From: a virus
Taxonomy: Duplodnaviria; Caudoviricetes
IMG/VR virus record: IMGVR_UViG_3300032287_000344
Coordinates: 1 to 29,746 of that record
Length of the DNA stretch: 29,746 nucleotides
Direction: 5' to 3' (one strand)
In this document: piece after piece, positions 1,583-28,191 of the stretch
Position numbering within the stretch: the stretch's first letter is position 1
How the letters are laid out: every line of letters starts with the position of its first letter
Notes under the pieces: model-generated
Seen by the model: the letters and a program-made list of their open reading frames with translations, nothing else
Told to the model about the DNA's origin: nothing
The model's database searches: none
Translations under genes and position numbers: made by a program

Positions 1583-4500
1583 GTTTTACTGACAACATTG
1601 GCACTGGTTGGGAAAAGATTGGCAAAAGTGGTTTTGCTAATGACATCCGTTTGCCATCCCTAATTAACGACATTGCTTCTGTTGCCAGCAACGATAAAAA
1701 CTTTTTTCAGGATGCTTTATCCATAGCAGGCTCTACATTTATGACATCGGTTTCTTTCGCAAGCCTACCAGTCCGTAAAATTGGTGGATTTGCCGTTGAT
1801 GAAATCCTTATGCCAGCAGCGCAAAGAAGTTATGAAATTGGTGGCAAGTATGCACGTCAACCAATATCAGCAGGTTTACTTACGCTAGCCACGCTTGGTA
1901 ATGCTAAAAAGGCTTGGGAGCAGAAGGATGAGATTTCTGCAGGACAAGCATTAACCTATCTTGGTTCTAAATTTATCCCCGGTGGCGCAATCAACCGAGA
2001 AGATTTTGACATCTTTGACCCAAATGACCGCAAGATATTTGCAGATGATTGGGGTTATCGTTCAATATCTGGAGCGTTTGATACCTTCTTTAGCACAGTA
2101 ACAGACCCGCTTGGAAAAGCAGGCAAGGCTATTGGTCTTGCTCGTAAGGGATTAGTTACCCGCCCACTTGGAGCGGAAGATGCTGGTTACTCAAACCTTG
2201 TTAAAGATTTTGTTATGCCAAAGAGCATCCGAAAAACTACCGTTATTTCTCCTGCAGCACTTGCAGCAACAATTAATGCTGGCAGAGAAGAAGCCGGTGA
2301 GGTTTACAACACTCTTTCATGGTTTGCTAAGAGCGACAAAATAGCCATACGCGAGCATCCAATGATTAAGGCATCCAACGATGGCGATACACTTGCTTAT
2401 CTACTTGGAGAAGCAAAGACTGTTGATGATGTAGCAGATACTCTTATGGCTACAGCATTACGCGATACCGAAGCGATGGGCCGCTTAGTTGATAAGCGTA
2501 AAGACTTAGCGTTTGTATTTGACAACCTTAAAGATGCTTCAAAGGTTGATACAGAGATTCTTGATAACATACCAACCAACAGTCTTGTTGATGATGTCAA
2601 TAAACTTGATGCAGCAGAAGAAATGCTCCGTCAGGCGAAGGAAAACGATAGATACTATAACGCTCTAGTTGGCCTCAACGCAAAAACATCTGGAGCAGAC
2701 CTAACAAAGCGTACATTTGGTATGCAACCTTTTGAGAAATTGGCTATGAACCGCGCAGAACGGCGAGCGCAACGCAACCTTACTGGAACTTTTGATGTAC
2801 CAACATCTTTCCCAAGCGTAGCCTACTACCAGCCAACTAAGTTTCACCCACTTGTGGCTGTTGTAAACTTTGGCCTTCGCAAGGTTGGCGAGGCTTTTAC
2901 CGAGAAGCCAGCAGGTTATTTGTTTGCTAACGACTCAGATGCTTATGGTGAAATTGCTGCTTTTGGCAATGGACTTCGTAGAATAATTGGTGAAGAAGCC
3001 AATCCAATTGTTGAACGACACTTAGATGATTTTATTCGTTCTGCTGATGCAGAGAATAAGATAACAACCGCACAGTCTTTTGAAGATACAGCAGTTGCTG
3101 CAATCCACCGTTCATTAGGAATCTCTGATGAGGCTGGTGCTGCAATCTGGGGCGCTTACAAGCGCCGTAGGCAGTCAGCAATGGACATGATAAGCAACCG
3201 TAAGTTCTTAATGACAAACGATAATGTTGTCTTGAAGATTCCATATTTGGAACGCCAGGGTGGTAACGCTCTTCCAATGCTTGATGTTGAACAGTATCAT
3301 CGTGTTCTTAGCGAAAACATCGGACTTACTAAAGCACTTGATGGCTCATTAAGACTTGCTGACCCTGATGCGACCCGGTACATTGCTGGAATCCTCAATG
3401 ATATGTGGAAGGCATCTGTACTTCTTCGCCTTGGATATACCATCCGAAACGTATCAGAAGGTGCCTTGTCAATTCTTGGCAAGGGTTATGGTCTAGTCGC
3501 AGCAGCACAACTCTTTGAGAAAGATGCAGCGCGAGCATGGTGGAATAACCGTAAGGCTGGTTATGACAGAATCATTGACAAGCGTTTAGTTGGCAAAGGC
3601 CAGCGTGAAGATTCAGTGCAAATTAGAGAGCGCATCTCGGAAATCTATGATGAGATGGCAATGTCTAACCAACTTGATGAAGAACATCTTGTTGCTGTTA
3701 TTGATGCTGCAGAACGTGCATATCGCCGTGGCACACTAAATGAAGGTGCCTACGCAGAGTTTTTGGATGTATTTGGTCAAACAACTGGTGAGTGGTTATA
3801 CCATGGCTCAGTTGGTGGAATCAAGCAACTAGACCAAGCAAGACCTCTTGCCATGAACCTTAATGAGGCGCGGGCAACACAATGGGCTGAAAGCAGAATA
3901 CCTGTAATCTCTGTTGCTGAGTTATACCGCCGTCAGTTTGGTCGTGCCGTAAAACTTCCTAAAGAAATTACACAACGCCCTGGCGAAGAAATTGGAACCA
4001 ATTTAGTTTCTCAGCAGATGCCTGCTCAGGAATTTAATGCTCTTGATGAGTATGTACAAGGCGATGTAAATGTAAGATTTGATGTTCAGAATTTCCTTCG
4101 TGGAAATGCTACCGCTAGAGGTACTAACTATCCTTTTGTTAATCAGTTAAAGCGTGCCATTGAGCGCAGTGTTCTTAAAAAAGAAACAGTTGTTTATCGT
4201 GGAACATCTAACCCAAATATTCTTAATGCAAAAATTAACGACATTGTTGAAGAAAAAGGATTTACCTCAACATCAAAAGTTCGCCGTCAAGCAGCAAAAT
4301 TTCTAACAGATGTTTCAGGAGAATCTACTGTTGTAGAAATACGCTTGCCAAAAGGAATACCAGGATTAGATGTTAATGCAGCATACCGAGATTTTACTGG
4401 ATTACCAGTGCCGGGGTATGTAAAGTCTGGTGCAAAGTTTGACGACAATTCTTTTGTTGCAGAACAAGAAGTATTGTTACCTCCAGGGTTAAAGTTTAAA

Positions 4501-7500
4501 GTTATAGATGTTAAAGAAGTTCCAAATGAAACTTTTCCGTTTAAATTACCGTCACAAAAACAAGTTATTCTTGAAGCAATTGTTCCAGCACGCAAACCAG
4601 CGGTTACTTTTTCTGCACAAATGCAAGAGTTTGGCGATACACTACGTCAAGGTCTTACCAATACAGTAGCCAAAGGAAATCAAGTAGAAATACTCAACCC
4701 TTCTACTGGAACTTGGCGTGCCATTGACCCAGAAACTGTATCAGAAGATTTACTTATTACCTCACAGTTCCGTATCCGCAAGCCCGGAAACCAAGGGCAA
4801 TTGCTTGGAACAAAGGTTTATGGTCAATCACTAGACCTCCGCACTATGCGTGGTGGCCGTGCATACTTTGGGTTGAAAGACTACCCAGAGATTATGAAGA
4901 TTCTTGGCGTTACCGGCAGAGAAGCCAACTGGGGTTCTTCTTCCCTATGGGAAGGCAAAGAGCGCCAACTTCTTAACTGGATGCGAGCCAACGGAATCAG
5001 CAAATTAACCTTGCCAGATACCAAGGCTAGAGGTGGTCATACTGTTCTTGTTGACCCAAAGATGATTGAAGGCTTTGGACAACAGCCAACTAAGACTATG
5101 GCACAAGAGCGTTTAAACGCTGTTAAGAACGCTCAGAACCTTCTTAGCGATTCTTCTCGGATGACCCAGATGCTCTACCGCACCATCCAACAGGGTGGCG
5201 GAACATTTAAGTTTACTGTTGAACAAAGCGGTGATGTTCCAACTCAAGGTGTATCTGTTGCTGTTCGTGGAGCCACACACGCATTTTCTGTCGCTGATGC
5301 ACAGGCTAATCCACAACTGTGGATAAACTCTTTGGCTGACCACCTAGAGGCTAATCTTGATAAGATGGCAAAGGCAGACCACTTTGGCACATGGATTGAA
5401 GATATAGATGGTGTTCCCCATATCTGGGCAGAGCCAACCAATATCGTCATGGACCGAGCCACTGCTGTTAAACTAGGCGTTGAGCGCAACCAAAAGGGTG
5501 TGTTTGATGTCGGCAAGGGTGAGTTTATTTCTACGGGAGGAACCGGGGATGAAAAAGCAAGCGCAGCGTTTGCATTGGGTAAAAGCACAAAAGCCATTAG
5601 AGCAGATGTCGCCGGAAGAGCGCAGAGCGTTCGCGGAGCAATTAGCGCAACAAGCGTTGAACGCACTATTGACGACCTCACAGAATCCATCTCCCAAGGA
5701 AAATACCCTGTAGAAGGATTACTTAATTTTGTACGCGATAAGGCAAATACTGATGCTGCCGTTAAGCGTGATTTGCAAGAACTGCTTGGGCGTTTAAACG
5801 CACGGGTTCAAGAAGAATCAAGAATCTACGGACCACGACAAGTTTCTGGAACAGGCAAACGTAAGACCAAACTGTTCAACGGTCAGGTTATTGAATATGA
5901 TGATGCTGGTGCTGGTGAACTAGGACAAATCCTAATGAGCCGTACTGACAACGCTCAGACATATCGTAACTTTGTTGACTCACCATCGCAGTTGTTCCAA
6001 GCAAACTTTGGCAACATGGTTGAGGATGTACTAAGCCCAGATATGCCACAGTATTACTCGGGCTATGCAAACTCTCTCAATACTTTCTTCCGTTCTCCAA
6101 CAGATGACAAGATTGACCCAATCATTTCACAATTCTTAGATGGCAGAAAACCAGAACAAGTTATTGCATGGTTGCGCAAGCCAGAGAACGCAGCATATAG
6201 AGCGCGATTTAACATTGACGTTCCGGGAATCCAAGTTGCATCAGAACGACTTAATGTTGCTATTGATGCTGAGGATTTTGTTGGTGATTTGTACAGTGCT
6301 TACCAACGCTACTTGCCAGATGCAGAGATTCAAGAAGCGTTTAGAAACAATGAAATCACAGAAATGTGGTTGCGTGAGCACTTTGCTGACAATCCATCAA
6401 TGCCAGAGATTGTTGGTCGCTTTGTACCTACAAGTCCACAGGCAACCAACTTTATGGAGAAAACCCAGAAGTTTGTTGAGAAGGCATTTTACTTCTTAGG
6501 AAGCCTGCCAGAAACAACTCTTGCTCGCCATCCATTAGCACGTTCTGTTTATCGTGCTGAGATAGAGAATAGAGCAAACATTGCTCTCTCTATCAAGAGG
6601 ATGAAGTTTGGTGAAGATTCTGAACTTAGCCTTGCAGACATTAACGGACTACGCAGAGATGCAATTGAAGCAACTCGTAGAGAAGTAAACAAGACACTCT
6701 TTACAATCATCCGCAAGTCCTACGCTGGTGAGAAGATGCGCTTCATCATGCCGTTCTTTAACGCATGGGAAAACACCATCCGCCGTTGGTCAACATTGGC
6801 TATGGAGAATCCAGCAATCCCAGCAAGGGCTGGTCAAATAGTTTCATCCTTGCGTAACCAACCAAATGTGGTTGACAGAGATGGAAACCCAACAGAAGAG
6901 TTTAGTTACGATAACAAAATTATTCTACCTATGTCAGAAACTCTTGTTAAGATGCTACCTAGCGGGCTAGAGTCAGCAATGCGCTCTGCTGGTATGCAAG
7001 TTAGCATCCCGTTGCGAAGCCTTGACATCTTGTTCCAAGGCGAAGCAATTGCAGGTTTTGGTCCTATAGTTGCCATCCCAGCATCAGAGATTGTCAAACT
7101 ACGCCCAGACTTGATGGAAGTATTAAAACCAATTCTTCCTATGGGTCCATCAGATTCAATTGTCAAGCAAGTTATTCCACCTGCTATTCAGAAACTTTAC
7201 TCAGTAGCATCGCAGGATGAGGCTTGGTCAAGAACATTTAACACTGTGTATCGCTATGAACTTATCAAGTACAAACTTGGCGAGCGCACTACCGAACCAA
7301 CTCTTGAAGAAGTACAGACACTTGCAAACAATATGTACTTTGTCAAGATGCTTTCAAATCTTGTTATGCCGTTTGCTGCACAGTACGACTCACCATTGAG
7401 TTGGTACACACAGCAGTTCCGCAAGTTGCAGGAAACATACGGCAAGGATGCAGAAAGCATCTTCTTGCAGATGTACCCAGATTTAGCGGAAGCCACTGTT

Positions 7501-27112: not shown

Positions 27113-27892
27113 ATGCGTTTACTCTCTCGCGCTATAAAGACTGCCTCGCAAGGGGGTGCCACACTTCCTATGGTTTGGCGCTCTCTTGCAGACCAGCAGA
27201 TTGCGTTTAGACACGGAGAGTTAAGCATGATTGCTGGACCACCGGGCGCTGGTAAATCAACCTTTGCTTTATCGCTGGCGGTACATAGCAAGGTGCCAAC
27301 TCTTTACATCTCCGCAGATACACACTCACACACAATGAGTTTGCGTTTGCTTGCGATGCTCACTGGTAAATCACAGGCAGAGGTTGAGCCTTTGATGGAA
27401 AACGACAGGGAGTGGGCTGCACAAATGTTGAAGCCTGCTGACCATGTTATGTGGGAGTTTGATTCTGCTCCTACCCTGAAAGATATTGAAGATTCCATCT
27501 TGGCTGCGCGTGAACGACTTGGTGAGGATGTTCGTTTGATTGTCCTTGATAACGCCGTTGATGTAACTCTTGATGGGATGGATGAGTGGGGCGGTTTGCG
27601 TTCACTCATGCGTGAATTGAAATGGTGGGCGAGGGAAACAGGTGCAGCCGTAGTTGTTTGCCACCATACAAGCGAAGGTGTCCAAGGCAATCCTTGTCCA
27701 CCACGCCACGCACTACATGGGAAGGTGGCCCAGACCCCGAGCCTAATCCTTACAGTACATAATCAACCACAGACAATGGCTATCTGTGCGGTGAAGAACC
27801 GTTACGGCCCAGCGGATGCAAATGGTGGCACTCCAGTTTGGTTGTCGTATGACCCAGCAAGTATGTCTGTCTTAGACTTAGGACAACCTTAA
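27113..27892 (+). CDS. DnaB/RecA-family helicase-like P-loop ATPase
   Basis: Walker A AGPPGAGKST, Walker B LIVLD, VVVCHH, VKNRYGP arginine finger. Confidence 0.85.
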   Translation: MRLLSRAIKTASQGGATLPMVWRSLADQQIAFRHGELSMIAGPPGAGKSTFALSLAVHSKVPTLYISADTHSHTMSLRLLAMLTGKSQAEVEPLMENDREWAAQMLKPADHVMWEFDSAPTLKDIEDSILAARERLGEDVRLIVLDNAVDVTLDGMDEWGGLRSLMRELKWWARETGAAVVVCHHTSEGVQGNPCPPRHALHGKVAQTPSLILTVHNQPQTMAICAVKNRYGPADANGGTPVWLSYDPASMSVLDLGQP

Positions 27893-28191
27893 TGTGGGAA
27901 GCAGTAATTGTAGAAAACTCAGGTGAAGTAAGCAAGGAAATTCTCCCGCCCTTTGACCAAATGATTGAAGATATGAAGGAGCAGTTGGGATTCGTACCAG
28001 AAAACTATAACTATACTCTTGGTTGGAGGACCGTTGTTTGGCAGAATAAAGAAACTCTTGAATATAAACCGCTCACCGAGGATGAAGTACACGAACTCCT
28101 TGAAAGAGGCACTATCACTTACTCCAGAAGCGGTGGAGGAGATAATCAACAGCGCTCCGATAGCACCGGAAGTGAAGAAGATTCTGCTTAA
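27892..28191 (+). CDS. Hypothetical protein (99 aa)
   Basis: TAATG coupling to the helicase gene; acidic, protein-like sequence. Confidence 0.65.
   Translation: MWEAVIVENSGEVSKEILPPFDQMIEDMKEQLGFVPENYNYTLGWRTVVWQNKETLEYKPLTEDEVHELLERGTITYSRSGGGDNQQRSDSTGSEEDSA

Follow-up and report, generated by a model that had tools for sequence, protein, structure and literature searches.

A putative small gene nested out of frame in the giant gene of a freshwater phage and its co-inheritance with the preceding domain

Phage genes embedded in others, for example lambda Rz1 in Rz and phiX174 E in D, lie on the same strand as the gene that contains them, are read out of frame, and have their own ribosome-binding site. 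The nested gene described here resembles them in these respects, but its product contains no lipoprotein signal and no transmembrane segment, and its core has free-standing homologues. In polymorphic toxin loci, the immunity gene lies directly downstream of the toxin domain. The nested gene likewise lies directly after an effector domain and is co-inherited with it, as in effector-immunity pairs, and we propose by analogy that the two may work like such a pair. The MuF polymorphic toxins and their immunity proteins (PMC12226406) are comparable in having a virion-associated effector domain and a small partner, here a candidate one. In MuF toxins, the toxic domain lies at the C-terminus and immunity is encoded by a separate gene, whereas here the domain is internal (aa 1192-1324 of 2221) and the candidate partner is overprinted on a linker. 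With its internal domain and a partner family that is not common across lineages, the locus does not belong to the MuF toxin-immunity family; no MuF domain was detected in the giant protein.

The giant protein itself resembles the phage polyvalent proteins (PMC5512222), which are longer than 2000 aa, contain unrelated enzyme-like domains that come and go, and are inferred to enter the cell together with the DNA. The main text of that paper never uses the word "overlapping"; in the present locus, another gene is nested out of frame directly after one of the domains. The predicted beta-alpha-beta-beta-alpha-beta order of this domain fits that of the SAM lyases T3 gp0.3 (PDB 7OCK, PF23780) and Svi3-3 (PMC7877911), and its Gly-x-aromatic motif, acidic residue and loop Gln follow each other in the order in which possible counterparts occur there. 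These enzymes are described as free trimers, whereas the domain is embedded in a giant protein, lacks a profile match to them, and gives a weak structural match. Neither a cognate phage inhibitor of SAM lyases nor a description of the nested gene was found in the literature searched, which was of limited coverage.

The giant gene and the nested reading frame

The window, the whole 29.7-kb phage record that was analysed, contains a portal fragment (phrog_104), the giant gene, a capsid gene (PF13252) and replication genes. A gene of the proteasome-subunit family (PF00227, 13968-14531) directly follows the capsid gene. The giant gene product is a polyvalent protein, presumably, from its gene position, present inside the virion or injected. 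At 24-27% identity, its C-terminus is homologous to gp9 of Streptomyces phage FlowerPower and to the corresponding protein of related phages, which likewise follows the portal, and these Streptomyces phages are its nearest cultured relatives. Sequencing runs containing this stretch were mostly freshwater or estuarine, and the host is probably actinobacterial. Coordinates of the features are collected in Table 1.

Table 1. Features of the giant gene and of the nested gene, in window coordinates
Feature	Position	Strand	Remarks
Giant gene, 2221 aa	1579..8244	+	flanked by portal (phrog_104) and capsid (PF13252)
ADP-ribosyltransferase (ART) domain, aa 810-1000	4006..4578	+	PF03496, E 1.4e-10; optional module
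Span missing in cassette-less relatives L013, L063, L067	5130..5660	+	approximate; domain, start and much or all of the core
Mobile phage domain of ~130 aa, aa 1192-1324	5152..5550	+	ends TGGTGD; possibly a distant SAM lyase
Shine-Dalgarno (SD) sequence GGAGG	5536..5540	+	made by the Gly-Gly codons of the domain; 8-nt spacer to ATG
Nested gene, 54 aa	5549..5713	+	+1 frame; ATG 5549-5551, TAG 5711-5713; 56-61 aa in most relatives
Conserved core, residues 8-33 of the small protein	5570..5647	+	common to nested and free-standing homologues

The effector domains of the giant protein are variable. The ART domain is present in 20 of 49 distinct full-length relatives and missing from 29, while the second domain, which precedes the nested gene, is absent in three lineages. 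Even sisters that are nearly identical (L063/L065, L068/L069) differ in the presence of the ART domain, which suggests that it has been lost or exchanged repeatedly. Freshwater phages encoding an ADP-ribosyltransferase domain have been described (PMC6802176).

The initial annotation had placed a perfect SD sequence, an ATG and a 54-aa gene in the +1 frame of the giant ORF, and its coordinates and peptide match the sequence. Its reading that the SD sequence is encoded by the end of the preceding domain was also borne out, the Gly-Gly codons being those of the terminal T-G-G-T-G-D, and the nested ATG arises from the Asp codon of the same motif. The stop-free +1 stretch around the nested gene measures 78 codons and is the third longest in the giant gene, which has another +1 ORF of 54 codons with SD and ATG at 2180. 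In the window by itself, the nested ORF is not beyond chance, and relatives are needed to separate the two. One RNA run gave three short contigs with a depth of 3-4, too little to indicate strand, start or level.

Selection on the +1 frame in relatives

An alignment of 39 homologues was extended to 77 viral and 34 metagenome loci, which with the window made 112 loci. The region is contained in 83 of these; the 29 left out comprise 13 contigs that were too short, 13 distant relatives, and three that lack the cassette of domain and nested gene. The 83 loci represent 58 distinct alleles, with a family identity of 50-100% over this region. The +1 frame was open for 54-61 codons in all 58 alleles, whereas resampling of codons under an unchanged main-frame protein predicts 7.6; because the alleles share ancestry, such counts are not independent. 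A chance ORF was rejected on this result. Openness in at least 90% of relatives was found at 13 of 2127 positions of the giant gene, all inside the nested-gene stretch, and the control +1 ORFs at 2180, 6140 and 7610 were open for 50 codons in 13/49, 2/49 and 12/48 relatives. The stops in close relatives that would have spoken against the initial annotation were thus not seen.

The start site is conserved together with its SD sequence. The same ATG is used in 48 alleles, an ATG two codons downstream in nine, and a GTG one codon upstream in the last (read by eye); an AGGAG serves the nine shifted starts, so that the SD sequence moves along with the start. An SD duplex of -4 kcal/mol or lower was predicted for 46 of 57 alleles versus 7% of 4743 other +1 ATGs, using a generic anti-SD sequence. 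Conservation of the ATG alone is a weak indicator, with 31.5/58 expected and 7 of 51 near-invariant Asp columns likewise fixed as GAT.

Substitution patterns were examined in both frames. In 48 spanning-tree pairs from 49 full-length genes, main-frame synonymous changes over the nested gene numbered 130 against 381 expected, a ratio of 0.34 that is the lowest in the giant gene (gene median 1.01, with 0.63 and 0.80 in the windows that come next). The nested-gene window was the only one of 55 in which identity in the +1 frame (0.65) exceeded that in the main frame (0.51). Within the core, third codon positions of the main frame accounted for 22% of changes versus 59-66% elsewhere, the lowest value among 84 windows, and first positions, which are the wobble positions of the +1 frame, accounted for 55%. 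Invariant Lys and Met residues of the +1 frame overlie main-frame residues that vary between K, Q and E and between N, D and Y. Open frame, synonymous dip, wobble shift and the tracking of the start by the SD sequence agree with the initial annotation that the overprinted gene is under selection of its own. On these sequence comparisons, the nested gene is very probably a real, previously unannotated protein-coding gene.

Two further open stretches were noted. On the minus strand at 5473-5697, an antisense frame remains open over 50 codons in as many as 90% of relatives, probably as a by-product of the double constraint over the nested gene. At 6688 (aa 1704), 73% of relatives have a second +1 stretch that is free of stops over 50 codons; the main frame is highly conserved there, and no synonymous dip was found.

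The preceding domain and its coupling to the nested gene

The structure model of the domain (pLDDT 92) has a beta-alpha-beta-beta-alpha-beta core, the same order of core elements as that described for SAM lyases (PMC12255297) and compatible with their ferredoxin-like, PII-type fold. It gave 23 viral fold matches at E ≤ 0.001, comprising stand-alone proteins and parts of large proteins. Four positions are conserved among 35 family members (G79 in 35, W81 in 34, D or E at 94 in 35, and Q114 in 32), and they follow the same order as G56/Y58, E69 and Q104 of Svi3-3 (PMC7877911), a correspondence based on order and not on residue-level superposition. The T3 SAM lyase (7ock_L) was a weak structural match at rank 9 (Z 3.2, rmsd 5.1, 94 residues aligned), with the longest alignment among the 50 matches listed. 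The PF23780 SAM-lyase profile matched none of 48 domain members and none of seven distant members, and hhalign of the domain against a T3-like profile, a very shallow template, gave a probability below 1%, no better than the reversed control. The domain had no sequence match in the PDB, no Foldseek match in the PDB at E ≤ 0.001, and no VIA match at Z of at least 5 in two comparisons, the second of which had no SAM lyase among the matches listed. The label "SAMase-like" used in the initial annotation is therefore suggestive: motif, strand order and the Z score of 3.2 speak for it, and the missing profile link against it. From sequence and model, we give SAM-lyase-like activity of the domain close to an even chance. 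SAM lyases are toxic at high expression (PMC7877911), which would give the phage a reason to restrain such a domain. The same domain occurs in gp34 of Synechococcus phage P60 (L195, record 27697-27996), which is annotated as an internal virion protein, and this cultured cyanophage is a ready system for studying domain activity.

The domain and the nested gene are tightly associated. All 74 loci found through the peptide contain the domain, and 74 of 75 loci found through the domain contain the peptide; the contig of the lone exception ends within the domain. A stop in the nested gene was seen in none of the 58 domain-bearing alleles. In the three cassette-less relatives, 145-170 codons are gone, comprising the domain, the SD sequence, the start, and the core in part or in full. 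These relatives fall in three separate starred clades, each beside close cassette-bearing sisters, on a quick tree built from 46 rows chosen out of 112, with losses counted from the drawing (the tree group table gives one change, as unlabelled rows go uncounted there). Their separate placement indicates three independent losses of domain and nested gene together. The cassette-less form was rejected as the ancestral state because its rows nest inside cassette-bearing clades. No allele has lost just one of the two, and both were lost together in 3/3 events. Were loss of the nested gene tolerated beside the domain, point losses would be expected to be commoner than in-frame deletions of 430-500 bp. 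The sample is small at three events, and co-deletion is partly mechanical, since the SD sequence sits within the domain and deletion of the domain tends to remove the start of the nested gene too. The distant giant proteins contain neither domain nor nested gene (13 loci; FlowerPower region). Joint occurrence and joint loss thus uphold the claim that the small gene is tied to the preceding domain. Being kept with the domain and lost with it, the nested gene may well encode a partner or inhibitor of the domain.

Free-standing genes of the domain family give an indication of the origin of this arrangement. Most of them stop at TGGTG[DEK] or shortly beyond it, and a small gene often follows directly. 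In one of them (L349), the same Gly-Gly and Asp codons create a GGAGG, an 8-nt spacer and a +1 ATG. Together these features suggest that the "perfect" SD sequence is the ordinary coupling signal of the domain family and that capture of two genes is the simplest origin; the nested gene was probably captured with the domain as a translationally coupled two-gene cassette. The existence of free-standing homologues of the core likewise suggests that the gene was captured rather than born by overprinting.

Homologues of the nested gene were found near the domain in none of 26 viral loci retrieved with a distant free-standing domain gene and in none of five GenBank phage loci with the domain (including P60 gp34), contrary to the expectation that homologues consistently follow the domain. 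The small genes behind free-standing domain genes are unrelated to the nested gene. Hence the domain-plus-inhibitor cassette of the initial annotation is supported as an in-frame capture, the simplest origin, but not as a general rule, homologues occurring also in host islands of genomes where the domain was not found. A different small family, characterised by an acidic helix and a GHPKS-like motif, lies behind the domain gene in L349 (domain end near 2438), L324-L329, L332, L333, L335 and L337; in L349, it is coupled by the GGAGG-8 nt-ATG overlap in the +1 frame. This family may be an alternative partner of the domain.

The small protein, its homologues and its possible role

In the monomer model of the small protein (mean pLDDT 73), the N-terminal motif is extended and is followed by a single helix at residues 22-45. 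LHWVKA, earlier taken for a strand, is not modelled as one, the long helix being the only element called. Among 43 sequences, L8, H9, W10, V11, K15, M20, E24, R25, A29, L32 and A33 are invariant; K15, M20, E24 and R25 are also invariant across the free-standing homologues. The small protein matched no Pfam, PHROG or NCBIfam family (one relative had a weak match to phrog_5710, E 0.007), and it gave no GenBank phage match, no usable Atlas match and no viral fold match at E ≤ 0.001.

A full profile search with the small protein returned 34 proteins at E ≤ 0.001, two of which are nested copies picked up by gene callers; two repeat proteins (P0095, P0117) and a chimera (P0091) were set aside. Most other matches are either free-standing proteins of 45-88 aa, many with an amphipathic-looking N-terminus, or membrane proteins of 189-205 aa that start with the small-protein module. 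Among genomes related to an Actinomycetota MAG, genes of these kinds occur in 3/301 and 6/401. Two of the island homologues follow an integrase and an HTH gene, and another lies behind an HTH gene, with an MmeI-type restriction-modification gene nearby; three further genomes have the module joined to membrane proteins. In the three genomes with island homologues, the domain was not found at E ≤ 5, and it was likewise not found in 401 genomes of the order; the genomes may be incomplete. A viral scan with the free-standing profile gave 34 loci, all on contigs also found through the nested copy.

Integrative elements in small actinobacterial genomes (L235:2735-5192, L318:6483-8487, L317:8130-8659) contain an integrase, an HTH protein, the small homologue, and variable cargo such as an MmeI-type system or an EVE-domain protein; they are possibly phage satellites. 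The module occurs at either end of unrelated membrane proteins (L320, L321, L322; P0097, P0098, P0102, P0104-P0107), one of which has a trypsin-like protease sequence, judged by eye. Its presence on unrelated membrane proteins looks like that of a generic interaction module.

We tentatively favor the reading that the small protein is a partner or inhibitor of the preceding domain, most likely binding and restraining it, and place this just short of an even prospect on the sequence evidence. A two-gene cassette would have entered the giant gene in frame, the stop of the domain would have been lost, and the small gene would have been recoded so that its DNA spells a linker as well. During late synthesis, ribosomes initiating at the internal SD sequence would make the short motif-plus-helix protein beside the giant protein. 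The small protein would bind the domain, possibly a SAM-degrading anti-restriction enzyme, and keep it quiet or folded until packaging. On infection of the next cell, the virion would bring in the domain but not the small protein.

The main rival is an independent, host-directed role, which we regard as a serious possibility below an even one. In that case the nested gene is real but a passenger, captured as a downstream neighbour, and its product acts alone on a host protein or membrane complex in takeover or phage exclusion. The island homologues, with their amphipathic-looking N-terminus or transmembrane helix in genomes without a detectable domain, fit such a role, as do the other downstream neighbours of free-standing domain genes. 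A passenger would not be expected to be lost only together with the domain, and the confinement of the viral loci found with the free-standing profile to contigs bearing the nested copy also argues against it.

The remaining readings fare worse. Very improbably, +1 frameshifting could give a shortened giant protein an alternative C-terminus with no initiation of its own: in the window the +1 frame stays open from position 5477 onward and the nested ATG is followed by a run of A residues, but this run is not conserved, +1 stops occur in many relatives less than about 20 codons ahead of the start, and four read ATG-TAG-ATG. The frameshift tail was rejected on these upstream stops and on the SD sequence following the start. 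We consider it still more improbable that no protein is made and that a signal in the RNA or DNA, or a conserved linker in the main frame, underlies the conservation. The RNA contigs are uninformative on expression, which leaves room for such a signal, but main-frame residues vary while +1 residues are fixed, the wobble position shifts, free-standing genes encode the same core, and no sigma-70 promoter or terminator was found in 4900-5900. The idea that the small protein is an antitoxin of the ART domain, a known effector family in the same giant gene and a partner considered in the initial annotation, was rejected as the least probable of all because the 29 of 49 genes without ART keep the nested gene, and L067 retains an ART-like insert without the start and core of the nested gene.

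A more far-reaching version of the partner role, which we regard as unlikely, is that an injected distant SAM lyase has its inhibitor hidden in the next linker, and that freshwater actinobacterial islands carry membrane-tethered versions of the inhibitor, one beside an MmeI-type SAM-dependent restriction system, to disable the entering enzyme. One small family would then serve both as a phage safety catch and as a host anti-anti-defence.

The nested gene adds an unannotated small-protein family to a widespread freshwater phage group, and it would show a polyvalent virion protein absorbing a two-gene cassette whose second gene is kept alive out of frame. Since the domain (~130 aa) and the small protein (54 aa) are both small, the proposed partnership is directly testable. 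If the partner role is true, it would explain how a lytic phage can produce large amounts of an injected enzyme that damages the host and yet leave its own late phase unharmed, and the small protein would be the first candidate inhibitor of a large domain family that has no name and may consist of SAM lyases.
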